This document shows, piece after piece, positions 370-44,790 of a stretch of DNA of 64,000 bases (within the stretch, counting starts at the first letter, position 1; the number at the start of each line of letters is the position of its first letter). The DNA lies in the IMG/VR virus record IMGVR_UViG_3300027881_000536, positions 1 to 64,000 of that record. The stretch is one strand, 5' to 3'. This DNA is from a virus. The notes under the pieces are model-generated. The model was given only the letters and a program-made list of their open reading frames with translations. It had not been told where the DNA came from and made no database searches. Position numbers and translations under genes: made by a program.

Positions 370-975
370 ATGGCTCTAGAGGATGCTTGGGGAGTTCTCA
401 AGGACAAAGAGTACACTGGAGGCCAAAAGTCGTTCATTGACAGGGCTACCAAGAATCTGGACGAAGAGAAGTTAGGTATAGGCTCGTATTTCCACCAAGC
501 ATTCTACAAGATGAAAGCCGATGCTCAGAAGAAGGTTGGTGATATGCTCTCAAAGGACTTTGGGGCTGTAGATTGGAAGCACAATGCACTCTCAGGGAAC
601 CACATGGATGTGCAAGAGCACATGGAGCATGCAATGATGAGGGCTCAGATGCGTATGCACGCGATAAATGCAAATAATCTTGACCATCCCTGTCTACACA
701 GCGACAAGTGGTTCTACCAACCTAAGCACTTCAACAGCCCCCGCACACATGGTTTTGAATCACCAACGGGAGGTTTGTTTGACCGGGGTGAGCCTTTGCA
801 TGACATATTCGGTAACATGGACCATGGTGAAATGGAGCAATCCTTCAACCCAGGTGGAGTTCATCACCAAGAGAACATGCCCGAGGGGCTTGGAGCAGCG
901 CGCCCCTCAGCAGTAGGACCCCGAGAGAACTATCCTGACCATGCTGCACCTGGTTTCGGTGTCAGAGACCAATAA
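370..975 (+). CDS. Hypothetical His/Met-rich protein with N-terminal AWxxLK tag
   Basis: Track ORF 286..975; ATG 370 preferred (CGTGA SD-like, upstream extension lies in AT-rich promoter-like DNA); begins MALEDAWGVLK. Confidence 0.75.
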   Translation: MALEDAWGVLKDKEYTGGQKSFIDRATKNLDEEKLGIGSYFHQAFYKMKADAQKKVGDMLSKDFGAVDWKHNALSGNHMDVQEHMEHAMMRAQMRMHAINANNLDHPCLHSDKWFYQPKHFNSPRTHGFESPTGGLFDRGEPLHDIFGNMDHGEMEQSFNPGGVHHQENMPEGLGAARPSAVGPRENYPDHAAPGFGVRDQ

Positions 976-1007
976 TCTCAATATGGAATACCGTATGCGC
1001 GTAGCAT

Positions 1008-1484
1008 ATGGCGCTAGGTGTAGCGTGGGATTTTCTCAAGATGCAAGGATACCGCCATGCTGCAGGTATGGCAATTCGTCACCCTATGCACAAGAATCTC
1101 GTCTTGTGGCTAAGAAGGTCACCGGAAGAAGATACTATGCATGGTTTGTGGGAACTACCTGGCGGAAAAGTCGAAAGTAAGCATAGAGACCCACAACACA
1201 CTGCAGAAGAAGAAGTTATGGAAGAATGTGGACTCCCTGTCTCAAATGTTCAACATTGGGGACAACATATCGACCATGACATGCAGAAGGTGTATCATGG
1301 GTTCCACGGTGTTGCTGAGCATAGTGCAGTGACACTCCCTAGGAATCCAGAGACTGGTGTGCAAGAACATGACAAGTATGCGTGGATGGACCCACAGCAA
1401 ATGTTTGACAGAGATGACATACAGATAAGCCATCATGCCGATTACCTGTTTAACGAGTTGCAAAGCACAAATGGTGGTGAGTAG
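1008..1484 (+). CDS. Nudix hydrolase family protein with N-terminal AWxxLK tag
   Basis: Nudix box WELPGGKVE...TAEEEVMEECGL; C-terminal EHDKYAWMDP matches the usual EH....W motif; canonical RE is EE. Confidence 0.85.
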   Translation: MALGVAWDFLKMQGYRHAAGMAIRHPMHKNLVLWLRRSPEEDTMHGLWELPGGKVESKHRDPQHTAEEEVMEECGLPVSNVQHWGQHIDHDMQKVYHGFHGVAEHSAVTLPRNPETGVQEHDKYAWMDPQQMFDRDDIQISHHADYLFNELQSTNGGE

Positions 1485-2108
1485 GTGAATTTAGCCTTCA
1501 GAACCCATGAAGCGTACCTAGACCAGGCATGGCGAACACTCAAAGATAGTATCTTGCTGAAAATGCCGCCTAATCAGTATGGGGAACAACCTCAACACAG
1601 CACATATCATGTGTATCCAGAAATATGGCAAGAAGCAGGGGGGGCCAGAGCGGGTGAAAGCCATGATGGCCCACATCAGATGTGGACAATTCACGAATTA
1701 GAGGAGAAACTGGGTAGAAAACTGACTCCAGACGCCTTTACTACTTCCCCAGTCAATTGGGAAAGAGATACTAGAGGTCATCAAAGGCAGGCTAGACGGT
1801 TTTTCCCGAAAGAAGAAGCGATTATCCAAGATAGGTTGGGTGGTAAGGAGGGGATGGACAAACTAAGAGCAGATTGGGTGAGGTCTCGTTTAGGCTCTAC
1901 CAGAAGACCACAGACGGACACAGCAATAGCGGAGGAGATGGCGCGGATGAAGCGAATTCCCAATTATAAACAAATAGTTGCACAAGAAAAGAGGGGACGG
2001 AGACTCAATAGAAATTTGAGGGGTACTCCTGCAGTTTTACCTACTTTTCCTAGGCCGAAATACTCACTAGGGCAAGAAATGAAAAGGCAGGAGGAATCGC
2101 AAGTATGA
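1485..2108 (+). CDS. Hypothetical basic protein with AWxxLK tag and LExxLGRxLTxxxF-type domain
   Basis: GTG start after GGTGGTGA; YLDQAWRTLK; YHVYPEIWQEAG...LEEKLGRKLTPDAFTTSPVN. Confidence 0.75.
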   Translation: MNLAFRTHEAYLDQAWRTLKDSILLKMPPNQYGEQPQHSTYHVYPEIWQEAGGARAGESHDGPHQMWTIHELEEKLGRKLTPDAFTTSPVNWERDTRGHQRQARRFFPKEEAIIQDRLGGKEGMDKLRADWVRSRLGSTRRPQTDTAIAEEMARMKRIPNYKQIVAQEKRGRRLNRNLRGTPAVLPTFPRPKYSLGQEMKRQEESQV

Positions 2109-2114
2109 TACGCG

Positions 2115-2154: not shown

Positions 2155-2172
2155 ATAGTGGGTTGATTTCAA

Positions 2173-2499
2173 ATGATGAGTATCAAGGACTTAGAATATC
2201 TAAAAGGGTTCACTATGATATCTACCAGAGACCCCCTTACTGAGGCTTGGAATTTATTGAAGGCTGGTGAGGATGAGATAGAGAAAAGAATACATTCTGA
2301 AACAGTCGACCCCTTAACAGAATTAGGTCCTCAGACTACAGAACAAGAATGTGGTCAGTGTGAAGGGCAAGGATACATTCTCGTTGGTAGACAAGGTGTA
2401 GAAATGGCACAGGCATGTCCTGATTGTAAGGGGACTGGTCACATTACCACACATACTCCAATTTCAACTACTGGTGAGGGCTTGGAAGGATACCCATGA
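2173..2499 (+). CDS. Small DnaJ-type zinc-finger (2x CxxCxGxG) protein with AWxxLK tag
   Basis: CGQCEGQG and CPDCKGTG; PLTEAWNLLK; alternative start ATG 2215. Confidence 0.8.
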   Translation: MMSIKDLEYLKGFTMISTRDPLTEAWNLLKAGEDEIEKRIHSETVDPLTELGPQTTEQECGQCEGQGYILVGRQGVEMAQACPDCKGTGHITTHTPISTTGEGLEGYP

Positions 2500-4538
2500 T
2501 AGCATTTGAGAAAGGATGGGGTGTTCTCAAGGCTAGTCGTCTAGGTTCTCGAGAAAGAGATGCTGCACATAGAGCAAGACTCGTAGACCCGAAAAAAGAA
2601 TTTTCTGAGTACATAGACAAGCCTGGAGGCGGTCATAAGGACGCGGATGGGAAACTAATCAATCCTTTCTACAGAATAGACAAACCTTACGAGCGGGATG
2701 AGGATGGTGGTCAGGGTAGTTTGCAAGACAGAAATTTTCAGCATCATTGGGAACCATCTAAGTTTTCCAACATAATGGACCTGTCGGATTATCCAAATCC
2801 AGCATCACATCGTGCTAGAAAGAAGTTAGAAGATATCCTTTCTGGTAAGATGGAGAAGGTAGAGACTCAAAATAAAGAAACAGGGCTCAAAGTTACAAAT
2901 TGGAAGGCGAGAGCCAAGCCTTTACAGAATGATACTCATAAGTATGGGTTGAAACATGATAACAAGGAGATGCTGGGGCGGCAGGCTTTGCAACACCTTC
3001 AAGATTTGGGATTAGAAGCCGGTAGGGTCCGAGGACACATATTTGTCAAGATGCCTTCAGAACCAGATAAGAAAGGAGACCAGGTATTCGGCCCTAAGGA
3101 TGACCATGTCTTCTACATCCCTGTGGGTAGTCACGACCATGCTAGGCAGGAGTCTTGGCCAAATACAATTGCTGGACGAGATAAGAAATGGGAAATAGAC
3201 GAAGGTTCGCAAGACCCACATACTATGCGTGCACGAAAATATGCTCTACATAGTACAGGTCGTCGTGCACAAGGGCCAGTCAATGTAAAACAAGATGGTA
3301 AGGACAAGTCTAGTAAGATGTATCAGAATCATTACATAGATTATCTGAATCTAATGAATCCCTTCCATAGAAATAGTATTCTCTCCAAAGAGAGCAAATT
3401 GGAGGCTATAGACCCTGAAAAGGCTACCAAGAAGAGATTCGAGAAACAATACTGGAGCAGCAGGGATGCGTCGCAGAAGGTAATGCAGAATGAAATGATG
3501 GGTGGCCCCCCTGAAGGTACTGTTAGCAACCCTAATGTGAATATGACTGATATACACCCACGATTGAGTGGGTTAATAGAAAATGAATTACATGCTATGA
3601 AACATTGGTGGGAAGACCCTCGATTGAAAGCGAAGGATATCAAACAGATGATGCCTAACTTCTGGCATTTCAGTAATTTGAAGTGGGCACCTAAGCATGA
3701 GCAGTTGCCCAAGAAATGGTGGAAGAACAGAGCCAATGAGACTCTGAAGTTGAGCCAGTATCTCAAGGAGGGACCTCCACACCCTTCTATGCAAGAACCC
3801 GGCACATTTGATGGTGGGATGAGTGACACAACATCGTCTCTGCTTGAGCGAAATAAATTCAGACAGCAACATGGGGTAACAACTGATGATGGAAAATTAG
3901 TGCCACCATTACTTCCTACTGGTAGGGCTATAGACCAAGACAGAGGGGAGGTTCAGCCAGCAGGTCCAGGTGCAATTCAACCCCCTACTCAGAAGAGGGG
4001 TGGTTTGGGGCTTTCTGCTTTAGACACTATAAATCAGCCAAAAGAGCCATCCCCGCATATACCCCCTCCCAATAAGAGAATGCCAATCGAAGATGTAATG
4101 GAGGCTAACAAGGATGTCGACCCTACTATCAGAAGAGCCAATACATCACCATTGGAAGGGGCGTTCGATTCCATCATCAAAGTGATTCAACAACCACAGC
4201 CTTTCACTGGTATTGAAGGTAGAGCCCCTGACATTCCACAACCTAATCCTGATGCGGGGAAGATTTTTTGCAATGGTTGCGAACAACCATTCCCATTGAG
4301 TGATATAGTTCCCGTTCAAGCAACCAAGAGTGGGGAGGGAGCGATGTTTGATGCTTTTCGAGAGGTACCTCAAAATGAAAGACTTTGTCGTTCATGTCGG
4401 CAACACACCTCTCAGGGTGAACAAGGTATGTTGAATTGGGGGAGTGGCCAAGATTACAATCTAAACCCTCAAGATATGGACATCTATGTAAGTGGTGACC
4501 GACCCCCAATGACTGGTGGGAAGGTGATAGTAATATGA
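2496..4538 (+). CDS. 680-aa hypothetical protein, tagged, with C-terminal zinc finger
   Basis: N-terminal AFEKGWGVLK; late PLEGAFDSIIK; CNGC...CRSC; ATGA overlaps with neighbours. Confidence 0.85.
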   Translation: MIAFEKGWGVLKASRLGSRERDAAHRARLVDPKKEFSEYIDKPGGGHKDADGKLINPFYRIDKPYERDEDGGQGSLQDRNFQHHWEPSKFSNIMDLSDYPNPASHRARKKLEDILSGKMEKVETQNKETGLKVTNWKARAKPLQNDTHKYGLKHDNKEMLGRQALQHLQDLGLEAGRVRGHIFVKMPSEPDKKGDQVFGPKDDHVFYIPVGSHDHARQESWPNTIAGRDKKWEIDEGSQDPHTMRARKYALHSTGRRAQGPVNVKQDGKDKSSKMYQNHYIDYLNLMNPFHRNSILSKESKLEAIDPEKATKKRFEKQYWSSRDASQKVMQNEMMGGPPEGTVSNPNVNMTDIHPRLSGLIENELHAMKHWWEDPRLKAKDIKQMMPNFWHFSNLKWAPKHEQLPKKWWKNRANETLKLSQYLKEGPPHPSMQEPGTFDGGMSDTTSSLLERNKFRQQHGVTTDDGKLVPPLLPTGRAIDQDRGEVQPAGPGAIQPPTQKRGGLGLSALDTINQPKEPSPHIPPPNKRMPIEDVMEANKDVDPTIRRANTSPLEGAFDSIIKVIQQPQPFTGIEGRAPDIPQPNPDAGKIFCNGCEQPFPLSDIVPVQATKSGEGAMFDAFREVPQNERLCRSCRQHTSQGEQGMLNWGSGQDYNLNPQDMDIYVSGDRPPMTGGKVIVI

Positions 4539-4969
4539 ATCCGTTAGATGTTTCTTGGAGTATTATCAAAACTATGCCTCCTGGTGAGAGAAGACGAGTT
4601 CAGAGTCTGGAGGGGCGGGGATTAAACCCTACTCCTAGGGATATATTCAATATTCAACCCCCTAATGAAAATAAACATGGGATACCAAGCCCTAATGATT
4701 ACATATCATGGGAACAAGCGCTTGACCCATCTAGTCAACGAGATGTAACACAACAAGACTGGGATAATTTGAATAATCCAATGGAGGCGCGGGACCCACC
4801 GGGCCCATCACCTCAAACTACTCCAGAGCGTGTAGGTCCTGGAGATATGACTCCAGATGCAATAATGCGTTATACAAGGCCTCAGTTGGAGCAAATGATA
4901 CAACTGATACACAATGAGTTAAGTCGTAGACAGGATAACAAGAATATGGGTAAGGTGGGTGTCAGATGA
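4535..4969 (+). CDS. Hypothetical tagged protein, partial paralog of 44395..44790
   Basis: MNPLDVSWSIIK; C-terminal IMRYTRPQLEQMIQLIHNELSRR helix. Confidence 0.75.
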   Translation: MNPLDVSWSIIKTMPPGERRRVQSLEGRGLNPTPRDIFNIQPPNENKHGIPSPNDYISWEQALDPSSQRDVTQQDWDNLNNPMEARDPPGPSPQTTPERVGPGDMTPDAIMRYTRPQLEQMIQLIHNELSRRQDNKNMGKVGVR

Positions 4970-5574
4970 TGTTGAAGGCGAAAGGGGGTAGATGTCCTGC
5001 TTGTGGTGGTTCTGGGGTTATGCATCCTAGGAGATTTCAAGTTCCTTGTGGTATTTGTAATGGTACTGGGACCATGCAAAAGTCATTCAGATATAACCCT
5101 CCTCAAAATGCTGCTTGGTCATTCCTCAAAGATGCAGATTTGACTCCCGCACAATGGAAACCAGATGCTCAGCAAGGTGGTGGTCAGGGGGCTACAGTTG
5201 GTGAGGCTCCTAAGAAGAGTCCCGAGGAAGAGATGCGTGAGAAAGAGTCAGACCATAATATCAGCGTGAATAACCCAGCGACACAGGAATGGTTCACATC
5301 ACTTCTACCAGATGCAGTAGAGTTCCGTCAGAAGTTGATGAATACTATGTGGAATCCAGGTACAGCACTTCATTCCCCTAACTACAAGAAAGATGTCAAA
5401 CCTATGGAGAGGTCCGCTAAAGAGATAGATTCTCTCATTGCTCATATGAGGTCTATGCATGGTGATACCCCTGGTGCTGGGCGTGGAGTTATGCCAAATG
5501 GGTCCAGTAAAGGACCCAAGAATGATGCTGCGGCAAAATTTGAGAGGGAGTTTAGTGGTCCTGGTGGGGAATAA
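4966..5574 (+). CDS. DnaJ-type zinc-finger protein with AWxxLK tag
   Basis: CPACGGSG and CGICNGTG; PQNAAWSFLK. Confidence 0.8.
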   Translation: MMLKAKGGRCPACGGSGVMHPRRFQVPCGICNGTGTMQKSFRYNPPQNAAWSFLKDADLTPAQWKPDAQQGGGQGATVGEAPKKSPEEEMREKESDHNISVNNPATQEWFTSLLPDAVEFRQKLMNTMWNPGTALHSPNYKKDVKPMERSAKEIDSLIAHMRSMHGDTPGAGRGVMPNGSSKGPKNDAAAKFEREFSGPGGE

Positions 5575-5759
5575 TGCCATCAGTTAGTCCTAAGCAAAAG
5601 AAACTCATGGCTGCTTTATCTCATGGTTGGGAACCAAAGAGGCCTTTACCGAAACTCCCTCCTAAGGAAGTCGCTTTACGGTTTCACATAGCAGACTATC
5701 CTAGCCATGACTCCACTAAGAAGGCTTTCGATGTGGCTTGGGAATCTCTCAAGACTTGA
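5574..5759 (+). CDS. Small phage protein (MPSxSxxQxxxMAAxxH type) with C-terminal AWxxLK tag
   Basis: MPSVSPKQKKLMAALSH...VALRFHIAD resembles a small protein type recalled from many tailed phages; ends AFDVAWESLKT. Confidence 0.7.
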   Translation: MPSVSPKQKKLMAALSHGWEPKRPLPKLPPKEVALRFHIADYPSHDSTKKAFDVAWESLKT

Positions 5760-5783: not shown

Positions 5784-8700
5784 TTGGGGTCATATGTGCT
5801 AGTTAGCCCTGTAGACTCCGCATGGGAGATACTGAAAGGTCACATTCTCAAGGCTTCTGCAGGTGAACCACCTGATAAGACGGAGAGAAATCTCATCAAC
5901 GATATCTGCCATGAGAAGGGAAAGAATGCTAGAACTATTCTCAAGCAGCATGAGAATGATGAGAGACTGTTAGTGCGTCTAAATGAAATTGTTCGGAAGT
6001 ACGATAATGATTTCAATTTGGCTTCTGCGTCTGATAAGGAGCCTATTTACAGGGCTGTAACTGAGGACGGCTCTGCATTATGGCCAGCAGGCTGTGAAGA
6101 TGCTTTGTTTCAAAGCACATCCAAAATGGCTAGTGACCACTACAAGCGTATGTCTCCTAGTAAGTTCGTGAGTAACAAGGAGATAATGTTGCTTTCTAGA
6201 CACCCTGATGAATCAGCCGGTGCTATGCTTTCGGATAGACTTCGTGATTTAGTTGAACTGAATCCTGATGCAGCAGATGATGCTAAGAAGGAAGTTATGG
6301 CTCGTCTTGAAGACCATATATCAGAACTAGACCGTTCCGAAAAGACAGAGAAAACAGTTAGTGCGAGGATGAGGGGGCGTGAGGGAGAAGAGGGATATGA
6401 GAACCATGTTAGAGAGGTATTGCATAAACAGCACCGCATGAGAGTTCTCAAGAATCACTATCGTGATAGGGCAGCAAGTGAGATTGTCGGAGAGTTACAA
6501 GGAGTCAAGAAACATCATAGTACTTGCCCCGAGCATGGTGTGATAGGATTCCCAAATTGTGAATGCCCTTCAATTCTAGATTCACAAAGGTCAGATTATC
6601 TAACCTTGGAGCAGAGGATGGGTGGTAGACATCATCCTAGACATTGGGAGAATGAAAATCTGAAAAATGGAGTAGTTGCTTCCATTAATGATTTGGTTCA
6701 TATTATGTGTGAATTCTCAAATATGGCCAATAGTAGTACAATAAGAACTGATGGGGGAAGTAGGAAGGATAGATTAGAGCATTGGTGGAAGAACACTCCT
6801 TGGGACCAACGCAAAGTCATACTGGGATTGGAAATCAAGTACAAGGGAAAGCATTCCCCTAGTCTACCTTACTTGCTTGGTGAGTGGATGAATAATGATG
6901 ATAAGAGAGATTTCTTGCGTTTTGTTTCTGATTTCGAGGGTTCCAAGTCTAAAAGGAGGAGAGAGGGAACTGGAGCCAGAGGTAGAGCCGCTTCTACAGA
7001 CCCAGGAATAATAGGAGATTGGTCTTCCAATGATTTATTCCACTACCTCAGCCCTGATGAATCGTTTGCTTCTCCTGATACACACGCAGATGAGGATTCT
7101 CTAGGTGATACTACCTATGAGGATGTAGATGTGGGTGGAGCAGGTGACTCCGGTTATGGCGGTGAAACCCATTTTGGTCATGAGGGTGAGGGTGGTATCG
7201 AAGTAGAGGACGACCCTTATTCTGAGGAAGATATTGTAGGTTCTGAGTATGCCTCGCAAACAGGTTCAGTTAGAGGAGGTCGTAAGTCTCGTAAGCCACC
7301 CTTCCAAATTTATACACAGCAATGGTTTTCGACAAAAAAAGAGAAAGACGACTGGTTGGCAGATATGCAAGAGAGAGTGAAGTTATCTGAAAGTGGGGGA
7401 GAGACCGTTAACATAAGGAGAGATGGTAAAGAGATAGAAGTACCTTTGTTTCAATCCCATCACCCTGATTATTTGACTAAGAGTGAGATGAAGGATATAA
7501 TCGGGCAAAATGATTTTGCTGCAGAGTGTATTGAGAATCTCAATAAGGATGCAGCAGAAGACTTACTCGAAGAGAAGAGAGGTCATATGCAGAAGGAGAT
7601 AGATGAGAAGGGAGTATTGTATGATGGTCAGTCTCGAGGTCTTCGTGTCAGTCCCAAGACAATGGATTTGGCGTTAGAGGTTCTAGGTTTCTCTAGGACT
7701 CCTGAAGGTCAGAGATATGGTAAACTCAAAGATGCATTATTCACTGATGGTAAATTTATGAAGGAAAATCCTGACCATATACTGGATTCTGGCGTTGGGA
7801 GAGCCGCAATCAATAATCTTCTGCAAGGAGCAGAGAAGCACAGAGAGGCTGCTGGTCAAACAGTACGAACGATACAATGTACCAAATGTGGTGGGTCAAG
7901 AGTATCCAAAAGAAGGTCTAGCGGTAAAGGTGGTAGACTATATCCCTGTGGTAAATGCAGAGACCCTTTCACAGGCGAGTCTACTGGGTATACTACAGCA
8001 TACCGTGAAGGGGATGCCAGTCCTGAGCAGAAAGAGCAAATTATACATGATATGCGTAAGGAGTATGAGGATATAAAAGCCTCTTTCATACCATCAATCC
8101 GAGATTTAGCACATGAGGCAGGTTTCAGCAAGCAATGTCAAGGCTGTAAAGGTTCAGGAGAAGATGAAATTCTAAGAGATAGTGAAGGTAAACCTGAGAA
8201 GTGTATTGAGTGTGAAGGCTATGGTAATGATATTTTCCTAGAGCCTTATCTTAAGGACATATACACTAAGCAAGAGCAAGGGCTGAGTGCAGAAGAGGCC
8301 ATGGACGCTGCTATCAAAGACGCAGAGAGAAGACATAGTATTCTCAAGTATAGGGATAGAGAGAGATTACACGACAAGAGAATGTCTGACCTTGAGAAGT
8401 ATGGCTTACTTTCCAATGGGGTGCCTGCACTCTTTTACATGAATAGGCTTCATGAAAAAATCGGCTCAAATGGCGGAGGTGTTCTGAATAGGAAGGCTCT
8501 TGAGGCACATCGAAAAGAAATTTTAGATGAAAGTCCAGACATAGGTTTCCACCGACTTAAACAAGAATTGGCAGATAGGTTACTGAAGGTCTTCAGTTAC
8601 ATAGATAGAAAGCATGATTATCATGGTTTGAAACTGGCTGATGCTATCCATTCTCCTTATTTTGAGGAACTTCTCAACATCTTATCTGAAAAGCCTCATT

Positions 8701-14700: not shown

Positions 14701-14900
14701 AACGCTATGATGTAGAACGAGACGATACTGCGGCTATGGCAAATCAGCCTCCAATGTCTTTCGGGGCTAGTCAGGCTGATAGTCCAAGTGCAGTACAAGC
14801 CCAGCAATGGGGGGCAGATGATGAGACTCTTCAATTGAGTGAGGACCCTGCAGAGGTTGCCTGGGCTAACATTCTCAAGAATCTTGCAATAAACCATTGA
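5784..14900 (+). CDS. Giant 3038-aa multi-zinc-finger protein, probable internal virion/ejected protein
   Basis: 9.1-kb open frame (TTG start uncertain); roughly nine Cys-based modules, four strict CxxCxGxG; AWxxLK-like tags at both termini. Confidence 0.9.
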   Translation: MGSYVLVSPVDSAWEILKGHILKASAGEPPDKTERNLINDICHEKGKNARTILKQHENDERLLVRLNEIVRKYDNDFNLASASDKEPIYRAVTEDGSALWPAGCEDALFQSTSKMASDHYKRMSPSKFVSNKEIMLLSRHPDESAGAMLSDRLRDLVELNPDAADDAKKEVMARLEDHISELDRSEKTEKTVSARMRGREGEEGYENHVREVLHKQHRMRVLKNHYRDRAASEIVGELQGVKKHHSTCPEHGVIGFPNCECPSILDSQRSDYLTLEQRMGGRHHPRHWENENLKNGVVASINDLVHIMCEFSNMANSSTIRTDGGSRKDRLEHWWKNTPWDQRKVILGLEIKYKGKHSPSLPYLLGEWMNNDDKRDFLRFVSDFEGSKSKRRREGTGARGRAASTDPGIIGDWSSNDLFHYLSPDESFASPDTHADEDSLGDTTYEDVDVGGAGDSGYGGETHFGHEGEGGIEVEDDPYSEEDIVGSEYASQTGSVRGGRKSRKPPFQIYTQQWFSTKKEKDDWLADMQERVKLSESGGETVNIRRDGKEIEVPLFQSHHPDYLTKSEMKDIIGQNDFAAECIENLNKDAAEDLLEEKRGHMQKEIDEKGVLYDGQSRGLRVSPKTMDLALEVLGFSRTPEGQRYGKLKDALFTDGKFMKENPDHILDSGVGRAAINNLLQGAEKHREAAGQTVRTIQCTKCGGSRVSKRRSSGKGGRLYPCGKCRDPFTGESTGYTTAYREGDASPEQKEQIIHDMRKEYEDIKASFIPSIRDLAHEAGFSKQCQGCKGSGEDEILRDSEGKPEKCIECEGYGNDIFLEPYLKDIYTKQEQGLSAEEAMDAAIKDAERRHSILKYRDRERLHDKRMSDLEKYGLLSNGVPALFYMNRLHEKIGSNGGGVLNRKALEAHRKEILDESPDIGFHRLKQELADRLLKVFSYIDRKHDYHGLKLADAIHSPYFEELLNILSEKPHLGEATDVTSAKLKRHLMEINHPDKFEHRPSYQICPSCEGTKKERDHHTHNWIDGSSCTRCSVRGKPPTGYIHKGNRKVSRIFDLPEIRTGVPECPCCKDGSGQMINSPGGLGKSTRVYHFPIDHDFDTMTTMDHIFDLENKLKRAQTKFSKEPNDGNKNQVMQIYEALNDAIEEETPLLTKTLGMRFERAQAESGKTGRSMAAFIGGAYGDGEFRDYGVSWLDRRLPNGKIDKDWQPTVGKTPCPFCAEVNKRGEPLPGKLAGTTPMLGDKDGYHSPAGFLGEAQGCPSDSHREDGATIFSQMVAVKHWVGEKEFNPDTARMEPGKHHDMLDLIEDSWSKGPVIDDLRDRFPVVSKSSPEEKRKWFEKNPGKKLEHFFKERTQKARDRDAYSPRPPQTIGDYMFNKFAALRRKSGKPTPQERITHKGASSYLSQDKARVDPVSTLQKTDYLGSTVSSDAFTKGEHFLDKLDSSGILDFEDDSFSNENELKRLFAIHCLIPDYYGHRHSNPLYMTGGESEKDLRKWARNVLGVKRNHPVGEEMKSEFRHNLHMIEPLLQLEKEWSHYYLAPREEMVEESGWPTSIFNTTDSKQPFLNQDDLQRVFGELRGHYRDWWELMDYGHYSPDHHGFVPPTVHFPDLCLFLNNQHMPEEVAKAWFNHDDKQLPDWMHTKGKSMEEMQELASVLWAAGQGDQNTSLEYPKSVEWMEQARADGNDPDESTKMLWFRIRDMLQRRSRDPEGSKKALEALMTQRNRTQLNQWGFPTGCPCCKGEGQVTAHQFLERAPAFIDMVDDDGYFSDVPLGADGTPLEKVDGAYQMNDPKVHEFFKDHARSYSHPNWVDHKEYDKKDPYWRRHVMMQCPGCKGTHVCPSCDGHTGRHHASPIMMAVRNIRNMLHKEAMGMAGRFMKQPVMEDGPVEMQTDTHAAEINNMPAEVLEDYVPARAQIEPYTHERPKMGYIGAPTGKKPPDEGDRKDQADDGGSGILWVEEEDDEGESTGYYYTIRDPWHSNRGGRGTLASFDRELKRVTAEQLFEGLSPEEFYDREDKKDADSAKQAELWDLAEGAKNIREGARWDPGAQTRPKAVQEMIDRNLADPTLKPSKCVFPGCNQDITYGQKYCTGEEMYPHISVGAGGRKFMEMRPTEKEAPNHFALVKSPHYKDAVLNSSMPSKNYWGGREPIEKMLELGFKLEGSKRFGVRQDMDTEAHKEFMKSDFVRVLNEHGWSAPYLSDDPDYGSSSPFPKPQHLRGRNKAYNTLRGKLANGEITPEEYEKKMKTTEEGMKPLSNEEFEEKMEEMRTEWFNVTRDAVAAWRDSIEKIDMHIPYFTHPEDKGRVFTPFDIFDSQGIPQDHLHSIFDYIPHGLDPDNNPQHKTNWKTVGGQRVGLYSVIPKQVCKRCWSDISKEERENCECDTCGETLASEHDIDSSMMGMSDRGVPTSIQVQASGTPFPQGALSPFINSAKHPDLAVKVYLRDRLRNRAAYIAEHMKPEDGEFDPAMTQCKRCSGHGILQDEHGNPVKCGHCVQIPDLESELGKNNHMVFNDVDKDALMQVHTPNYRLMKGNPQDPNSWKPIDENDEEEFKQALKVLRLGAGGSKISGRILGTDVEQRLRKVQIGDEDDSLEEVVDEDKAEEAEQYLRTFLQIDKEGKHSPVHIPTMNPGLFSNNVWANSKGDAPLAKFKGHDDGRNKVQTKVNEHLHSASHDLLSRELFRLAGVRNFTELGNPGQGGGKTLDDGTREFPSWVPSARAKKLAKSNMKTIRQLKKKKNISETDQAKLEDALLLKEFIGEGKRPAWVLGLGNPIAVANQAQSNTEGYMLAPKEGFTGVDIDMPETIIRGSIMGNENTSSAERAAGIVGMLDGDNNHWVAKGIGSFGVGGLEYTNAMRDIVNRAESAFFVGGPKLGTIMDGSHVAHSEMRSEGALMKNALFTPSALHDEAHKAYAEGREEHGDQYMGLLGHVFKDTDIDTPMKNEDEIESHRNASMAGHSEIDPMGHGGTHERYDVERDDTAAMANQPPMSFGASQADSPSAVQAQQWGADDETLQLSEDPAEVAWANILKNLAINH

Positions 14901-29419: not shown

Positions 29420-29778
29420 TGGCAGACGATGTCACTAACTTGGTAGATGCTCTCATCACTAAGATGGAGCGCATGGATGGTGACATTGGTGTTTTACAAG
29501 ACCAGAATCTAGAACTCAAAAAGATGATTTCTAATCCTAGTGCACTTCTACGGAAGGCTGGATATGTTAAGACATCTACTCCTGCTACTGAGGATGTATG
29601 GGGAGACCCTCTTCGTGGTGAAAGAAATGAAGTTATTGAGAAGGCTGCTGTTATGGTAGATGGGATTATGGTAGAACCACCTACTAATAACCAACAGTGG
29701 CATGATATGGGTTGGGAAGAAATTCACGCTATGGCTGAAACAGCCGCAGTAGCAGAAGGAAGGCCGGTGGACCAATGA
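29419..29778 (+). CDS. Small acidic coiled-coil head-module protein
   Basis: 119 aa; LITK|M, VIEK|A; overlapping start/stop. Confidence 0.7.
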   Translation: MADDVTNLVDALITKMERMDGDIGVLQDQNLELKKMISNPSALLRKAGYVKTSTPATEDVWGDPLRGERNEVIEKAAVMVDGIMVEPPTNNQQWHDMGWEEIHAMAETAAVAEGRPVDQ

Positions 29779-37741: not shown

Positions 37742-39130
37742 ATGCTGATGATGGAAGCACCGCTAGACAGCCCTATTCTCATCAAAGGTAGGACTGGAGA
37801 CCTAGTTGTTGCCGGCTATGCTTCAGTTGAAATGGTCGATAAACAAGGGGACCTGATAACTAAGGGCGCACTACGAGAAGCATTCAAGAAATTCATGGGT
37901 TCTCCAGGCTTTAGGAATGTGCAACTGGCTCATTCAAATATCCAAGTTGGTTCTGTCATTCCTGAGTATTCGGATAGTAGTGGGCGTGTCTGGAAGTCTG
38001 AAGTAGACGATACTGGTATGTTCGTAGTTATCCAACTCCGTGATGATATCGAAAAGGCTCGTGAGGTAGCCGCAGAAATCCGAAAGGGTAACCTCAAATC
38101 ATTTTCAATAGGTGGGCAGGCTTTCGAGCGTGTCAACAAGAGTAACTCCGAGAGAGGAGATTACCGAGAAATACGCAGGATGGAACTGCATGAAGTTACC
38201 ATCTGCGAGAAGGGCATCAATCCAGAGGCCCAATTCCGAATCCTGAAAGAGGATAAAATTGAAATAAATAAAGGTGAAAATATGACAGATGCAATGACAG
38301 AACTACAGGATGTCTTGGAAAGGTTATCCAAGAGGCTAGACGATGTTGACGAGGCTGAGTCTGCCCTGAAGGGCAAAGACGATGCTGAGAAAGGCAAAGA
38401 CGATGCTGAAAAGGAAGACAAAGAAAAGGCTGATGTAGCAAAGGACAATGAAGACAAAGAATCTTCTGAGAAGTCTGAGAAAACGGAAAAGATGGACGAT
38501 GTGATTACCACAGAGTATCTTGACTGGCTAGAATCGACTGTGAAGTCTGCTGGGTATGACCCATCGGCTGCTCGCGGTCACTTTGATAACACAGAGGGAG
38601 TCGAAAAGGCTTACCTCCAAGAGGGTGCTCATGGTTACGACCATCGTGGACAGGGTAGTATCGAAGGCGCTGGTGAGGATGACTCCGGTAAGCGACCCAA
38701 GATGAATATGGGTGCAGGACCGAGTGGTAACAAAACCGTCATCAAGACAGATGAGTTCATCCATCCGGAAATGGTTTCCTCTGCACAAGTAGAGGAAGCA
38801 TATCAGGTCTACAAGGCCGCTGCTCTTGAGCAGCAGTTCAAGTCTGACCTAGGCAACAACTTCTCAATAAGATTACAAAAAGAAATACAGAATAGTCAGA
38901 ATGAGACCGAGAGGTCATCATTCGATGCGCGTGGGCCTCTACAAGACCTACAGAAAGCAGTTCTCGCTCTAAGCGGTAGGATTGAGGATGTTTCCACCAC
39001 ACCTGGTGAAGATTTCCAGAAATCTGCAGATGCTTCGAGAGTAACTATTCCTGAGACAACCGAGATGGCTGCCTTGTCGTGGGACGATGTCCACCGACTA
39101 GCACACTCGGCTCTAAGGGGTGATAACTGA
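37742..39130 (+). CDS. Prohead protease (HK97-type) fused to scaffold-like C-terminal region
   Basis: VVAGYASVEMVDKQGD, catalytic-type QLAH and KSFSIGG, ELHEVTICEKGINPEA; acidic coiled-coil C-half. Confidence 0.92.
   Translation: MLMMEAPLDSPILIKGRTGDLVVAGYASVEMVDKQGDLITKGALREAFKKFMGSPGFRNVQLAHSNIQVGSVIPEYSDSSGRVWKSEVDDTGMFVVIQLRDDIEKAREVAAEIRKGNLKSFSIGGQAFERVNKSNSERGDYREIRRMELHEVTICEKGINPEAQFRILKEDKIEINKGENMTDAMTELQDVLERLSKRLDDVDEAESALKGKDDAEKGKDDAEKEDKEKADVAKDNEDKESSEKSEKTEKMDDVITTEYLDWLESTVKSAGYDPSAARGHFDNTEGVEKAYLQEGAHGYDHRGQGSIEGAGEDDSGKRPKMNMGAGPSGNKTVIKTDEFIHPEMVSSAQVEEAYQVYKAAALEQQFKSDLGNNFSIRLQKEIQNSQNETERSSFDARGPLQDLQKAVLALSGRIEDVSTTPGEDFQKSADASRVTIPETTEMAALSWDDVHRLAHSALRGDN
38372..38413 (+). 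repeat. 21-bp coding tandem repeat x2 (GKDDAEK)
   Basis: GGCAAAGACGATGCTGAGAAA / GGCAAAGACGATGCTGAAAAG. Confidence 0.85.
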
Positions 39131-40275
39131 TGGCGCGTAATTATGTAAGGACAATACAGGACATGGAGCGATACTACTACGGTGGTACCGCATTGACCGG
39201 GTACACCTACAGCAGTGGAGATATACTCAAGGCGGATGCACCGCTTCTGAGCACCACGGCTGGTACCTACCAGGCAATCTATGGCAGGAAGGTTTGGTCG
39301 CAGTTGAATCAAGAGTTCAACGCGTTCAGCATCCTACCAAAGAAGCCGTGGGAGCGAAGTGGATGGCGCATCATAACTGCCAAGCCTTCGTTCGATGTTG
39401 GTGGAGGTCTGGCTGAGAACGCCACACTGCCCGACACCACGAAGCCTGACTTCCTGCATGTGGCTGCAAAGCCCAAGACCATTGGCCACTCGTTCGACCT
39501 GAGCGAAGTGTCCATGTTCCTTTCCGATAAGGATGATGGTCTCGGAGATGTGCGCCAAGTGCTCAAGGAAGAGATGGGGAAGCACCACGCTGACCACATC
39601 AACAGGATGCTATTGGTAGATGTCGAGACCCCAGCGGGTAACGACTTCGAGTCACTGGACCGACTAACCTCGGACCCAGACTCGATGACAACTGGTACAG
39701 GCCATGTGAGTGCTACTACAGACCACGACCTATACTCTATCACACGCGATGGGAGTTCCGACTTCCACAGTGCTGAGGTAGATGTGTCGGCTGCGGCTAA
39801 CACTAACAGGAACCTAAGCCTGAATCAACTGGACGGATTGTTCCAGCAGATTTGGGTTCGAGGTGGTAACCCCAAGGTCATGCTGACTGGGTACGATACC
39901 CTGATGCGTGTGCAACAACTACTGCAGAGCCAGCAGAGATTCATGGAATCGAAGAGGGTCACCCCCACCTACAACGGTGTGAAGGGTGTGCCTGGTATCG
40001 AGGCCGGATTCATTGTGGCTACCTACAACGGCGTGCCGCTGATTCCGTCCAAGGATGTAGTAACTGACACGAGTGGAATCTCGAGGATTTACTACTTTGA
40101 TACGGACTACTTGTGGTTCCAGACTGCTATACCGACCCAATATTTCGAGTCGGGTATCGAAACCGGCGACCCGTTCGCCATCAACAGACTAGGCCAAGAG
40201 GGGCTCTACCGAACCATGGGTGAGGTATGGGACTCTTTCTTCGGCGCAGGAGGTTCTATCCGTGACCTTAAGTGA
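39130..40275 (+). CDS. Major capsid protein (HK97 fold)
   Basis: Directly after protease; 381 aa; VWSQLNQEFNAFSILPKKPW, VATYNGVPLIPSKD, IYYFDTDYL; C-ending codon bias of a highly expressed gene. Confidence 0.92.
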   Translation: MARNYVRTIQDMERYYYGGTALTGYTYSSGDILKADAPLLSTTAGTYQAIYGRKVWSQLNQEFNAFSILPKKPWERSGWRIITAKPSFDVGGGLAENATLPDTTKPDFLHVAAKPKTIGHSFDLSEVSMFLSDKDDGLGDVRQVLKEEMGKHHADHINRMLLVDVETPAGNDFESLDRLTSDPDSMTTGTGHVSATTDHDLYSITRDGSSDFHSAEVDVSAAANTNRNLSLNQLDGLFQQIWVRGGNPKVMLTGYDTLMRVQQLLQSQQRFMESKRVTPTYNGVKGVPGIEAGFIVATYNGVPLIPSKDVVTDTSGISRIYYFDTDYLWFQTAIPTQYFESGIETGDPFAINRLGQEGLYRTMGEVWDSFFGAGGSIRDLK

Positions 40276-41817: not shown

Positions 41818-42521
41818 AATGTGATGTCCATTGGTGCAATGCTCTGAGTACCGGAAATTCCAGGTGGTGTGCAGTACACCAAGATGAGTATGAGCAGCAA
41901 GGTCCTGATTTGCAAAGGGCAGAAGGCCCATACCCACTGGATATATCTTTCGCAATATTGAAGCAAGGGTGGGGTGCAGCCATAACAGGGGGCTTGAGTC
42001 CGCTATATGATAAGGCGAAGCAATTCGGTGAGCGAATGGATAATGCAGCAATGGGAATGGTTCCGTCAAGCCAAGTAAGAGAAGGTGACCCGACTTATAC
42101 TGGTGGTACCAAGCAAGGTTGGGGTGATTCCATAATGGAAGTAGGGAATGAAATTCAGGATACTGCTCGAGAGGCTTTTGTGGACCCAGTGCAACAAGCG
42201 ATTGGGGAACCGGGTAACCCACTTGCTGAAGAGGGTATGGTAGATGCTGGTACAGGTTTACGAGGGAAACTAGGAAGATTCAGAGAGAAGGTAGGGCATA
42301 AGTTACTTGGTGAGAAGGACACGAGTAGAAAAACTGGAATACTCAAACCGTTGTGGTCTGCGAATGTAGTTACAGACGACAAGACTAAACAGAAGTACAA
42401 GCAATCCCCATATGCCCCTCGATTTGCGCGTAGAGAACAACTTACTGTTGCTGAGCAAAACAATCCAGGGTCAGTAGACCCGCAGAAAATCAGAGATTAT
42501 GAAAAGACGAGGATGATATGA
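41814..42521 (+). CDS. Hypothetical protein with N-terminal Cys/His finger and tag variant
   Basis: CDVHWC...WCAVH; PLDISFAILK. Confidence 0.7.
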   Translation: MKCDVHWCNALSTGNSRWCAVHQDEYEQQGPDLQRAEGPYPLDISFAILKQGWGAAITGGLSPLYDKAKQFGERMDNAAMGMVPSSQVREGDPTYTGGTKQGWGDSIMEVGNEIQDTAREAFVDPVQQAIGEPGNPLAEEGMVDAGTGLRGKLGRFREKVGHKLLGEKDTSRKTGILKPLWSANVVTDDKTKQKYKQSPYAPRFARREQLTVAEQNNPGSVDPQKIRDYEKTRMI

Positions 42522-42522
42522 T

Positions 42523-44136
42523 ATGCCAATAGTATTCCAGACAGGTGAACGCGAGCCTAGACCTCTGTTCCCTAATGACCTAGTTTATTCCAGTGCTCAG
42601 AAGGTAGCAGACATTCTACAGATTCCACTCCCTGACCCAGTATATCTCACAGCGGATTCTAACACCAGCGCTACTTCTGCCAAGATAGTCCCTGCTGACC
42701 AACGCATAGTTGGGTTTGAGGTTGGAGATAGTGTAGAGATAGCGAGTGATGTTGAGATGGGAGAGACTGTAGTCCTAACTAGTGTTGCTCGAGACGGTAC
42801 TGATGTGGTACTATCATGGAGTGGTGGAGTCACAGGGGACTACGATACTGCTGACAATGCTACTATTCAGAATCTACAGTCATTCACTAACGGTAAGCGG
42901 AGGGGGGTAACCCGTTCTGCCGTAGAGACTATGATTCTACGCATGCAAGACAAGATAGATAACCTCTGTAACAATTCATGGAGGCCAATGCTGCAAACAG
43001 CAGAGTATCTCAATTTCGACACATACAAACCCTACAGGAGAAGGTACTATACTGACTATGTAGGTACAGTTCCACTCATGTTCCGCAATGTCCAACAGAT
43101 ACTGAGACTGGAAATATGGCAGGGACAGGAGTACAGAGAAGTAGGTTCTGCAGAGGCTCGACTCAAGATACTCGATAATTCCCTACTTACCACTGACGAC
43201 TATGTGTTTCTTTGTCCTGGGAGTGGTGGAGTAGCCTCTTTACGGGTTGGTAGTACATCCAGTACATGGAGTAATGCATTCGATGTAACTACTACTGCAC
43301 AGGAACTCTCAGACCTCATTAACAAGGACCTAAGGAAGGGTAAATCGGGTGCAGCATTCTCACCTTCATTCACACTCCAGACAGCCAATACTGCTACTGG
43401 GGTAGAGACAGCCAATGTCCATCATGAGTTCATGACTTCTGCTAACGCTGATTATGGCACAGGGCAAATCAAACTGACCAGTATGCATCGTGGTGAAGGT
43501 GGAGAGAACTCTACTGTGGCTATTACTAATCACACTGGTATGAGCATCACTGGTCTGACAGACACCGTCCTCACAGTGACTGGTGTATCAGGTAGTTCTG
43601 GTAGTGCTACAATCACACTAGCCGATACTTCTGCCTTGGTGCCCTATGGTATTATCTGCATTGGTACGGGCACTGCTGTCAAATGCGCCTATTATACAGC
43701 AAAGACTGCCACTACACTCACAGGAGTGACTGACTTGGCTAGCAGTGGCCTTGTTGCGGCACTGTCGAATGGGACTGATATCACACAGTATGCACTCAAG
43801 ATAGACTATTTCGGTAGCACCACAGGAGATGAGGCTAGGCTTCGTGACTGGTGGTGTGACTATGACCTAGGTATCATCTACTTCAACAACACTTACCCCT
43901 ACTTCCAATGGAACTCAGTGAAGGCTACCTATGTCTATGGTGAGCGATATGTTGAAAAAGCAATAGAGGATATTTGTACCAAGATGGTAGCCATGGACCT
44001 GCTCTTGTCTGATGACCGTAGCGTCCTAATGCCTGAAGGGACTCAGAACATAGACTTAGGTTCCAAGTACCAGTTGTTCAAGCAACAGGTTGCTGAGACA
44101 CTACCTCGTTACATGGAGGTGATTAACATTGACTGA
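42523..44136 (+). CDS. Head-tail connector/adaptor with large beta-rich insertions
   Basis: YSSAQKVADIL, ETMILRMQDKIDNLCNNSW, KATYVYGERYVEKAIEDICTKMVAMDLL connector-like segments interrupted by Thr/Ser/Gly-rich domains. Confidence 0.7.
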   Translation: MPIVFQTGEREPRPLFPNDLVYSSAQKVADILQIPLPDPVYLTADSNTSATSAKIVPADQRIVGFEVGDSVEIASDVEMGETVVLTSVARDGTDVVLSWSGGVTGDYDTADNATIQNLQSFTNGKRRGVTRSAVETMILRMQDKIDNLCNNSWRPMLQTAEYLNFDTYKPYRRRYYTDYVGTVPLMFRNVQQILRLEIWQGQEYREVGSAEARLKILDNSLLTTDDYVFLCPGSGGVASLRVGSTSSTWSNAFDVTTTAQELSDLINKDLRKGKSGAAFSPSFTLQTANTATGVETANVHHEFMTSANADYGTGQIKLTSMHRGEGGENSTVAITNHTGMSITGLTDTVLTVTGVSGSSGSATITLADTSALVPYGIICIGTGTAVKCAYYTAKTATTLTGVTDLASSGLVAALSNGTDITQYALKIDYFGSTTGDEARLRDWWCDYDLGIIYFNNTYPYFQWNSVKATYVYGERYVEKAIEDICTKMVAMDLLLSDDRSVLMPEGTQNIDLGSKYQLFKQQVAETLPRYMEVINID

Positions 44137-44398
44137 TGACATATTCAAGAAAGCAAAGGAGGGTCTTAAACCAACAATACAGAATGTTAGAAAGCAATCT
44201 ATCTGGTCACCTGAAGGGAGAATGTTTCTAGATGCTGCTGCTAGTGCTGCAGGATACAAGGCTGATGACGCCGGTAATCTCATAGATGAGAGCGGGCGTG
44301 CCCTACCCAAGGAGCACGCGGATTACCAGTGGGTTAAGAGTATGGCAGAGCGTCAAGCAGCAGTGGAAAGTCCAATCGGTAGGGAGTTGTTAGAATGA
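44129..44398 (+). CDS. Small neck-region hypothetical protein
   Basis: TTG start with perfect GGAGGTGA SD. Confidence 0.7.
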   Translation: MTDDIFKKAKEGLKPTIQNVRKQSIWSPEGRMFLDAAASAAGYKADDAGNLIDESGRALPKEHADYQWVKSMAERQAAVESPIGRELLE

Positions 44399-44790
44399 GT
44401 GCGTTTGACTTGACTTGGATTAATCTCAAGAAAGCATGGTATGACAACGAGGATTTTCGTGGAGACCCAGATGATGAGGAGGCTCATAGGCGGGGAGAAG
44501 AAGAGGACCATCAAAATTGGCTGAATGACCCTAAGAATCAGGACGATAGTCCTAACGAGAGGGTAGATGCCCCCACCTTGGATTCTAATCACATCTTGAG
44601 GTTGACTAGACCACAACTGGATAAACTTATGGAGGACATTCAAAGTGAGATTCAGCGTAGAGAGACTAAAAAAGCCAACAAGAATGTGGCTGTTGTCAGT
44701 AACAGCCCAAGAGACCTGAGTAGCGACCCTTCCTCACCAGCAGGTAAAGATTGGATAAAGAACAACTCTTGGGCATTTGATGGTGGTTGA
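44395..44790 (+). CDS. Acidic tagged protein, partial paralog of 4535..4969
   Basis: MSAFDLTWINLK; ILRLTRPQLDKLMEDIQSEIQRR. Confidence 0.7.
   Translation: MSAFDLTWINLKKAWYDNEDFRGDPDDEEAHRRGEEEDHQNWLNDPKNQDDSPNERVDAPTLDSNHILRLTRPQLDKLMEDIQSEIQRRETKKANKNVAVVSNSPRDLSSDPSSPAGKDWIKNNSWAFDGG

Follow-up and report, generated by a model that had tools for sequence, protein, structure and literature searches.

We find that 13 proteins encoded in the window, which covers the first 64 kb of the 118-kb genome of a magrovirus-type archaeal tailed virus, carry a common short peptide tag. We lean towards the view that this tag would act as a portable docking helix, mimicking the scaffold tail and bringing cargo into the procapsid. 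This oceanic virus of archaea (a magrovirus) has not been cultured. The tag is a ten-residue helical peptide with the consensus [AP]-[LFMI]-[DEN]-x-[AS]-W-x-x-[LI]-K, and its 16 copies all lie on the plus strand between 370 and 44790. Trp is present in 14 of the 16 copies; the other 2 are Phe variants, at 4149-4181 and 41934-41963. Each of the 16 copies listed in a preliminary description of this DNA was found at the gene named there, and its statement that the tag is present on each of the nine consecutive ORFs between 370 and 14900 was borne out.

The block of nine genes begins with MALEDAWGVLK (370..402, 25.9 bits) at the N-terminus of a 201-aa His/Met-rich protein (370-975), which gave no match in Pfam and PHROGs searches and belongs to no known family. 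MALGVAWDFLK (1008..1040) heads a NUDIX hydrolase (1008-1484; Pfam NUDIX, residues 15-135, E = 1e-14); AF2 draws a helix at residues 2-12, before the fold, with low pLDDT, and NUDIX homologues retain the tag, separated from the fold by 0 to about 80 linker residues. YLDQAWRTLK (1515..1544, 19.4 bits) occupies residues 11-20 of a 207-aa protein (1485-2108), also N-terminally, and PLTEAWNLLK (2233..2262, 24.4 bits) residues 21-30 of a 108-aa DnaJ-type zinc-finger protein (2173-2499). The 680-aa protein at 2496-4538 has an N-terminal AFEKGWGVLK (2502..2531), whose W8, L11 and K12 are invariant in 6 homologues with identity down to 38%, and an internal Phe variant, PLEGAFDSIIK (4149..4181, residues 552-562), which is flanked by Pro-rich linkers and lies N-terminal to a C-terminal four-Cys module. 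In this internal copy P552, L553, E554, A556, F557, D558, I560 and K562 are invariant among the 6 homologues, and AF2 draws a helix at 552-565, again with low pLDDT. PLDVSWSIIK (4541..4570) is N-terminal on a 144-aa protein (4535-4969). PQNAAWSFLK (5101..5130) lies at residues 46-55 of a 202-aa protein (4966-5574), directly after an N-terminal zinc finger; residues 48-202 of this protein match residues 566-723 of a fused 723-aa protein in the relative G004, and the junction is the tag. A 61-aa protein (5574-5759) ends in AFDVAWESLK (5724..5753) 1 residue before its stop, and its G004 orthologue is likewise tag-terminated. Finally, a giant protein of 3038 aa (5784-14900) starts with PVDSAWEILK (5808..5837) and ends with PAEVAWANILK (14847..14879), 6 residues before the stop. 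Compared with its G004 orthologue, the N-terminal tag is 70% identical and the whole protein 36%; the C-terminal tag is kept as PVEVAWDNILK in G004 and in the relative L005.

The other carriers are encoded near TerL and downstream. AMDDAWSFIK (22705..22734) is the C-terminal tag of a 526-aa protein (21169-22749). Just upstream of TerL, a 496-aa protein (22719-24209) with a glycine-zipper hydrophobic stretch at residues 57-100 starts with AIDNVWEFLK (22752..22781) and ends with PLEQAWALLK (24171..24200), 2 residues before its stop, which has the top matrix score of 26.3 bits. In about 48 of 54 distinct relatives, this protein terminates in an AW tag, 2-4 residues before the stop, which is preceded by a hypervariable acidic linker. 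The second Phe variant, PLDISFAILK (41934..41963, 12.1 bits), sits after a Cys/His cluster at residues 41-50 of a 235-aa protein (41814-42521), and AFDLTWINLK (44401..44430, 8.6 bits) is N-terminal on a 131-aa protein (44395-44790) whose orthologues in relatives are tagged. The proteins had been described as unrelated, and they indeed have no common sequence outside the tag, apart from one pair: the proteins at 44395 and 4535 are paralogues (32% over 81 residues, E = 2e-8).

The tag is far more frequent than expected. Over the 116 called proteins of the whole 118-kb genome, a simple pattern, [AGSTV]-W-x-x-[LI](L)-K, has 15 matches, compared with 1.6 +/- 1.3 expected from 2000 per-protein shuffles. 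A position matrix trained on three related genomes only and then scored on the present genome gave 13 sites at 12-26 bits, all on the plus strand from 370 to 44790, and the top background sites reached 11 bits and had no Trp. As the preliminary description proposed, the tag is mostly terminal: 13 of the 16 are found no more than 30 residues from an end of their protein (binomial p = 6e-8). Its further observation that the GTPase operon, TerL, portal and tail genes are free of the tag agrees with our proteome scan, in which no tag was found in TerL, portal, protease, major capsid protein (MCP), tape measure, giant tail proteins or GTPase operon, nor in the minus-strand replication block (PolB, SNF2 helicase, chaperonin). 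Over the full proteome, the enrichment is terminal and restricted to the late strand. The DNA of the copies is 68-74% alike and codons vary from copy to copy, which fits the earlier claim of conservation at the protein level. The tag had also been called amphipathic; as a helix it exceeds background in amphipathicity, and AF2 models the tags as helical with low confidence.

The tag is an island of conservation on diverging protein bodies. Between the genomes G000 and G004, core genes are nearly the same (TerL 93%, MCP 95%, portal 94% and GTPase 98% identity); tagged proteins are 23-59% identical or have no orthologue. The tag is kept across dozens of relatives. It is also modular, given its variable linkers, the invariant internal copy and the gene fission or fusion junction that falls on it. 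The carriers are diverse, as was noted from the start.

The clue to what the tag may do comes from the head genes. The prohead protease (37742..39130, plus strand) has a Peptidase_S78 domain at residues 22-170 (Pfam E = 2e-10; alignment of 5 genomes) fused to an acidic, helix-rich, scaffold-like region, and it is a candidate source both of the docking precedent and of any clipping. Its C-terminal tail, MAALSWDDVHRLA (39065..39103, plus strand; residues 442-454 of 462), is a look-alike of the tag and is kept in 5 genomes and in about 20 of 23 full-length distant homologues. A second tail of this type, MGWEEIHAMA (29707..29736, plus strand), forms residues 97-106 of a 119-residue small helical head-module protein (29419-29778); it is conserved in 5 genomes, and the orthologue at the distant locus L098 ends in ...MSWGDINNL... 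The two tails have in common the form small-W-acid-acid-[VI]-H. In the 38,774 residues of the proteome, the pattern small-W-x-x-[LIVM]-[KRH] occurs 16 times, namely in 11 tags, the protease-scaffold tail, the 29419 tail and 3 others. In the present lineage, the likeness of tag and tail is confined to small-W-x-x-aliphatic-basic, and the hydrophobic residue before Trp is at -4 in the tags versus -2 in the tails. At distant magrovirus loci, N-terminal tags MSWKEILK and MSWQDIIK occur beside the tails MDWNEIHATL, MDWNDINALV and MSWGDINNL, so that tag and tail read as nearly identical peptides in these more distant magroviruses. Because the tag resembles the virus's own scaffold tail, it probably loads proteins into the head. 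The MCP (39130..40275, plus strand; Pfam SU10_MCP), a putative receptor for both tail and tags, is of the HK97 type, has a conserved N-terminal region with GDILK-A at residues 30-35, and is 34% identical to the MCP of the haloviruses HCTV-1/HVTV-1. For these related viruses, no tag was found in the examined HVTV-1 structural region and no tail motif in the HVTV-1 protease; halovirus virion proteomes are therefore uninformative on the tag.

We considered whether the tag may instead dock its carriers to a partner outside the capsid, such as the conserved small-GTPase membrane operon (14975-18429), the group II chaperonin encoded by the virus or a host hub protein. The carriers would then act jointly in the infected cell, for example at a membrane assembly site, and not in the virion. 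The GTPase operon is located between the two tagged blocks and, in every relative and even in a distant lineage, forms a conserved core of the late module; the chaperonin gene lies at 80865-82379; and any physical tie of the tag to the capsid is putative. We nevertheless regard a partner of this kind as unlikely, since the only sequence look-alikes of the tag in the proteome, the protease-scaffold tail and that of a small head protein, point to the head, and we know of no small-GTPase or chaperonin system that employs a peptide of this form.

The tag could also be mainly a processing signal, in which the S78 protease would cut after [LI]-K at the joints of precursors or modules and docking would be achieved by something else. 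The S78 protease of HK97 cleaves its capsid protein after Lys. Sites of the form hydrophobic-[IL]-[IL]-K occur at the N-end of the protease (PILIK-G), at the end of its domain (FRILK-E) and in the N-region of the MCP (GDILK-A); they are kept in five genomes, with a similar form in distant lineages, and the internal tags lie at module junctions, one of them the fission/fusion point. For the Lys of the tag as a cleavage site, even the best-looking candidate, FRILK, is a weak hint: about 90 distant S78 proteases retain it, and it may be structural, probably belonging to the S78 fold. A cut after a C-terminal Lys would free just 1-6 residues here and 2-4 in relatives, and yet the C-terminal tags are the best conserved. 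Trp and the residues preceding it are conserved equally to Lys, and a protease enclosed in the procapsid requires its substrates to be imported first. We therefore consider processing as the main role quite improbable. Docking is favored over a simple propeptide, as was argued at the outset, because C-terminal copies end just before the stop.

We give slightly less credence to the idea that the tags bind one another, whereby the helices would bundle the carriers into an inner body or ejection complex without a receptor. Proteins tagged at both ends (5784-14900 and 22719-24209) would suit such bundling, as would the direct succession of a tag-ending and a tag-starting gene, which occurs twice (5574/5784 and 21169/22719) and recurs in relatives. 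However, ten residues are very short for stable self-association, and the likeness to the scaffold tail would be left unexplained. That the tag is functionless, arising by chance or from composition, as a DNA repeat or as a domain shared within one paralogous family, as the 4535/44395 pair might suggest, is refuted by the shuffles, the clean separation by a matrix from other genomes, the divergent codons in DNA copies about 70% alike, the lack of likeness outside the tag among the other carriers and the conservation across dozens of relatives.

Loading by a docking helix has several parallels. In HK97-type and herpes-type assembly, scaffold and protease are retained in the procapsid by C-terminal tails, and the C-terminal part of the HK97 protease reportedly directs the protease into the capsid, a finding attributed to Duda et al. 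in 2013. Like HK97 gp4 and the herpesvirus scaffold, the present protease-scaffold has a conserved helix-like C-terminal tail, which the tag resembles; in those systems, unlike here, the tail is known on scaffold or protease only and not on a dozen unrelated proteins. Encapsulation peptides of bacterial microcompartments are short amphipathic helices at either terminus that bring enzymes to the shell through poorly conserved linkers, but the shell proteins are unrelated, the compartments are cellular organelles and the peptides have no sequence likeness to the tag. In T4, the CTS on IPI-III and Alt binds the prohead core and draws these proteins into the head; they later reach the host along with the DNA (PMC7411985). 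The T4 CTS is likewise a short terminal peptide common to several different viral proteins whose genes evolve fast. It is, however, N-terminal only and always removed by the gp21 protease after Glu; the present tag is also C-terminal and in linkers, differs in sequence, occurs with an S78-type protease, is only putatively removed, and has a larger cargo set (13 proteins, one of 3038 aa) and an archaeal host. In P1, residues 1-30 of DarB are enough for a reporter to be loaded into the head (PMC9024508), and DarA and Hdf bind the inner capsid face via helices (PMC12810830). In the Dar system, a T=13 head takes up one very large protein of about 250 kDa along with other anti-restriction proteins, but loading is stepwise and depends on other Dar proteins, with no common tag described for them and no sequence likeness between the DarB signal and the present tag. 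Encapsulin targeting peptides attach, from either terminus, to the luminal side of a shell with the HK97 fold (PMC8229669). Being short, N- or C-terminal, set on flexible linkers and bound uncleaved in a luminal pocket, they are the best match for the C-terminal, apparently uncleaved copies of the tag, although encapsulins are cellular compartments that lack a portal, a genome and a protease, usually take one or a few cargo types and use different motifs (e.g., GGDLGIRK). No publication describing the tag was found in the literature searched, consistent with the earlier remark that it is undescribed for archaeal viruses.

Based on these observations, we suggest how the docking helix may work. 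As the head assembles, the tag would bring fast-evolving accessory proteins to a single shared partner, and this partner would most likely be the inner face of the procapsid, either the HK97-type MCP or the scaffold core attached to it. Other conserved proteins of the late module could serve instead, namely those of the small-GTPase membrane operon or the 2395-aa head protein. Trp, the aliphatic residue at +3 and the hydrophobic residue at -4 would form one helix face that plugs into a groove, and the helix would be usable at either protein end or between modules, within a linker. The S78 protease may cut N-terminal tags off behind their Lys, and C-terminal tags would stay. The cargo would comprise the NUDIX hydrolase, the zinc-finger proteins, the glycine-zipper protein and the 3038-aa giant, as well as several disordered, basic or His-rich proteins. 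Thus loaded, it would travel in the head of the virus and enter the next host together with the DNA.

All 16 copies of the tag, on 13 proteins, that the preliminary description had listed were found again, and its statement that each of nine consecutive ORFs from 370 to 14900 carries one stands. The fuller consensus reads [AP]-[LFMI]-[DEN]-x-[AS]-W-x-x-[LI]-K; Trp is present in 14 of the 16 copies and Phe in the other two (4149-4181 and 41934-41963). Most copies (13 of 16) lie no more than 30 residues from a protein end (p = 6e-8). By place, nine are N-terminal, usually beginning one or two residues past the Met, two stand at residues 41-55 after a zinc finger, four are C-terminal and one is fully internal. 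Searched for in all 116 called proteins of the genome, [AGSTV]-W-x-x-[LI](L)-K matches 15 times versus 1.6 +/- 1.3 times in per-protein shuffles, which rules out a chance origin. A position matrix derived from three related genomes only, with the present genome left out, scored 13 sites of the present genome at 12-26 bits and the top two background sites, both lacking Trp, at 11 bits. All 13 of these sites lie on the + strand between 370 and 44790. The DNA of the copies is just 68-74% alike and the codons vary, in agreement with the earlier view that conservation is at the protein level, and a DNA repeat origin can be ruled out. Paralogy is ruled out likewise as the source of the tag: the carriers had been called unrelated, and most indeed show no similarity outside the tag, but the proteins starting at 4535 and 44395 are paralogues.

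The gene content and marine relatives give the picture of a virus of magrovirus type; magroviruses are viruses of Marine Group II archaea (PMC5434244). Within the window, every long ORF is on the + strand. Pfam identified TerL (24214-25617), the portal (27059-29035), an S78 prohead protease fused to an acidic helical region (37742-39130; 41.4 bits, E = 2e-10 against Peptidase_S78, for which the curated cut-off is 21) and an HK97/SU10-type major capsid protein (MCP; 39130-40275), and PHROGs a tape measure protein (48364-49917). The MCP shares 34% identity with its counterparts in the haloarchaeal tailed viruses HCTV-1 and HVTV-1. In the full record of 118,155 bp, of which the window is the first 64 kb and where a terminal overlap indicating circularity was sought and not found, the 80-118 kb stretch on the minus strand encodes PolB, an SNF2 helicase and, adjoining this replication block, a group II chaperonin (Cpn60/TCP-1; 80865-82379 of the whole genome, L095:16865-18379; E = 7e-105). 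TerL homologues with 71-95% identity are encoded by more than 80 marine IMG/VR contigs. The features expected of a magrovirus, namely a halovirus-related HK97-type MCP, archaeal-type replication genes with a chaperonin, and marine metagenomic relatives, are all present.

Several other genes of the late region deserve description. A small-GTPase operon (14975-18429) is a highly conserved core of the late module, with 98% identity in the related genome G004 and 71% in another, G001, and in a distant lineage the head genes are followed downstream by a Ras-like gene whose neighbours are similar (L099:8138-11207). A 481-aa LAGLIDADG-type ORF between TerL and the portal (25614-27059, + strand; Pfam, LAGLIDADG-like region at residues 315-391) has a near-tag, DAHKAWVIK, in its N-terminal part with the spacing one residue short, and relatives have at this place small ORFs whose N-terminal tag is properly formed. 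No tag is present in the 2395-aa protein encoded between portal and protease (30522-37709); its last ~500 residues alone are conserved in more distant relatives (39-58% identity), and the gene at its position in distant lineages matches DNA ligase families (L099:790-3273). The portal (28480-28760) and a 242-aa protein (29775-30503; tail at 30250-30500) both have at the C-terminal end a low-complexity tail rich in Pro, Gly and Met, with DNA repeats of 15-nt period.

The carriers include a NUDIX hydrolase (starting at 1008), two DnaJ-type zinc-finger proteins, a 496-aa protein with a glycine-zipper hydrophobic stretch and a 3038-aa giant, the last two with tags at both ends; several of the remainder are polar, basic or His-rich and probably disordered. 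Pfam and PHROGs searches of the carriers gave no families besides NUDIX and DnaJ-type zinc fingers, PDB sequence searches gave no match for the 3038-aa and 680-aa proteins, and the ESM Atlas gave none for the most conserved part of the giant. The AF2 model of the 680-aa protein from six sequences (mean pLDDT 41) was too poor for a fold search, and that of the NUDIX carrier was moderate (mean pLDDT 60); the large carriers yielded no fold assignment. At 5757-5796, one TGA and eight codons separate a 61-aa protein with a tag at its end from the giant with its initial tag, both being in the same frame; the same pairing is seen in G004, and the start of the giant is uncertain (TTG 5784 or GTG 5796). 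In the 496-aa protein (22719-24209), whose gene directly precedes TerL in nearly all relatives, residues 57-100 (22884-23018) form a Gly/Ala/Met-rich glycine zipper followed by a basic helical region. PHROG matches of this protein to tape measure proteins are weak; it resembles an ejection protein that inserts into membranes or forms pores.

Between 4 and 12 good copies of the tag were counted on each of four related contigs, always on the TerL strand. The protein directly upstream of TerL has, in about 48 of 54 distinct relatives, a tag 2-4 residues before its stop, after acidic linkers that cannot be aligned across relatives. These C-terminal tags come in three spacings, AWxxLK, AWxxLLK and AWxxLxxLK, and the hydrophobic residues stay on one helix face in all three alike. 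Every homologue found of the NUDIX hydrolase retains the N-terminal tag, with a linker to the fold that ranges from none to ~80 residues. In six homologues of the 680-aa protein, down to 38% identity, W8, L11 and K12 are kept together with the internal PLExAFDxIIK, which is flanked by Pro-rich linkers and precedes a four-Cys module; a word-pattern search of viral contigs yielded no relatives of this protein. Residues 48-202 of the protein starting at 4966 correspond to the C-terminal part of a fused 723-aa protein in G004, with the junction at the tag, a point of gene fission or fusion (4966-5574 versus G004:C1:1990-4161). In contrast to this fusion, the equivalent 680-aa protein of the present genome ends in the four-Cys module after its internal tag. 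Compared with G004, the closest long relative, identity is 98% for the small GTPase, 95% for the MCP, 94% for the portal and 93% for TerL, whereas the tagged proteins are 23-59% identical or have no orthologue. Because of this difference, the tag is a conserved island on fast-changing, partly interchangeable proteins, in the manner of a portable targeting module.

In the 38,774-residue proteome, small-W-x-x-[LIVM]-[KRH] matches 16 times. Eleven matches are tags; of the remaining five, two are close to the C-terminus of a head-module protein. One is in the tail of the protease-scaffold protein, ...MAALSWDDVHRLA... (39065-39103, Trp at residue 447 of 462), of which the stretch MSWDDVHRLA, located 9-18 residues before the C-terminus, shows conservation across five genomes and, among 23 distant homologues of full length, in about 20. 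The other, ...MGWEEIHAMA... (29707-29736, Trp at residue 99 of 119), is the tail of a 119-aa helical protein (29419-29778) encoded between portal and protease, which may be a second scaffold or head-assembly factor; this tail too is conserved in the five genomes. The two proteins share M-x-W-[DE]-[DE]-[IV]-H-x-[LM]-A as a second terminal motif, also kept in distant lineages. A search of 1.8 billion representative proteins gave 1153 homologues of the protease-scaffold, and in about 20 of the 23 full-length ones inspected, [ML]-[SDG]-W-x-[DE]-[VI]-[HN]-x-L stands ~12-16 residues before the stop. In two distant lineages, with proteases ~38-40% identical, small ORFs beside the head genes begin MSWKEILK, MDWKDTLK, MSWQDIIK or MSWQNILK, and the tails read MDWNEIHATL, MDWNDINALV and MSWGDINNL. 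Judged by these sequences, tag and tail are almost the same peptide there, and the tag has drifted in the present lineage, with Ala before the Trp and the hydrophobic residue at -4 instead of -2; it still shares small-W-x-x-aliphatic-basic with the tail. The scaffold itself has the conserved helix-like peptide near the C-terminus that marks a docking tail, and the tags are look-alikes rather than members of that class. Haloviruses were dropped as a proxy with virion proteomes, since the HVTV-1 structural region examined has no tag and the HVTV-1 protease no such tail.

We regard the tag as very probably a module that docks its carriers to one common partner. When capsids of HK97 or herpes type assemble, the scaffold or protease is kept inside the procapsid by its C-terminal part. 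For HK97, such a role of the protease was reportedly described by Duda et al. 2013, cited in PMC7411985. A peptide that copies the scaffold tail should take its carrier to the same place. Because of the tail likeness and the precedents of T4, P1 and encapsulins, we lean towards the reading, by analogy, that the tag would be a docking helix loading cargo into the procapsid. The capsid targeting sequence of T4 (PMC7411985) and the DarB signal of P1 (PMC9024508) are short terminal signals that load non-structural proteins, and encapsulin targeting peptides, at either end of their cargo, attach uncleaved to the luminal face of a shell with the HK97 fold (PMC8229669). Like the T4 signal, the tag is a short terminal peptide common to several otherwise unrelated virus proteins; like encapsulin peptides, it is terminal on a flexible linker of variable length (0 to ~80 residues in the NUDIX protein, acidic and hypervariable at C-termini). 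An encapsulin is a cellular shell without portal, terminase or genome, whereas here TerL, portal, S78 protease, tape measure and tail genes are present. Unlike the T4 and P1 signals, the tag occurs at either terminus and in linkers, has a defined consensus, resembles the scaffold tail and has a large and quickly changing candidate cargo set; moreover, the protease is of S78 type and the host is an archaeon. Our literature searches found capsid-targeting work on bacteriophages only, and no mention of a tag-like motif in the magrovirus papers covered.

The common partner could instead lie outside the capsid, as the conserved small-GTPase membrane operon, the viral chaperonin or a host hub. We consider such a partner unlikely beside the likeness of tag and scaffold tail. 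It is improbable that the tag is purely a processing signal. Candidate sites for clipping after Lys, hydrophobic-[IL]-[IL]-K, are conserved across lineages at the N-terminal end of the protease, at the end of its domain and at MCP residues 30-34. F/P-x-I-[IL]-K stands 15-23 residues from the protease N-terminus in three lineages, and the S78 domain ends G-x-N-x-x-A-x-F-x-[IL]-[LIV]-K (38234-38248) in ~90 distant homologues (P0015-P0164). FRILK, the domain-end site, was downgraded as evidence for Lys cleavage on account of this conservation; it may be part of the fold, and the N-terminal and domain-end sites could either be two places of self-cleavage or represent a fold element. A cut at Lys in a C-terminal tag would take off few residues only. 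Bundling of tags with one another is distinctly improbable given the tail likeness, and the chance that the tag is an artefact is negligible.

Returning to docking in the procapsid, we tentatively suggest a general sequence-coded loading, which we hold as a possibility: any protein with a scaffold-tail-like ten-residue tag, at an end or in a linker, could be enclosed and delivered to the next host, amounting to a dozen or more fast-changing effectors per genome, the 3038-aa giant included. If true, no archaeal virus would have had such a code before this one, and protein packaging of the T4 and P1 types would be extended to viruses of archaea. Scaffold docking in viruses would also be tied to the cargo loading of encapsulins through their common HK97 fold, with the system as a living intermediate between the two. 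Mimicry of the scaffold tail could then make the capsid a general delivery vehicle, and a working ten-residue tag would be a simple handle, at either end, by which foreign proteins could be brought into HK97-type shells. Among the viruses that infect archaea of the ocean surface, magroviruses rank with the most abundant, and they are not yet cultivable. The tag, if this reading is true, would be a readable address label that tells, from sequence alone, which unknown magrovirus genes encode particle-carried, host-injected proteins, and the tagged proteins would be likely first-strike effectors and counter-defence proteins.
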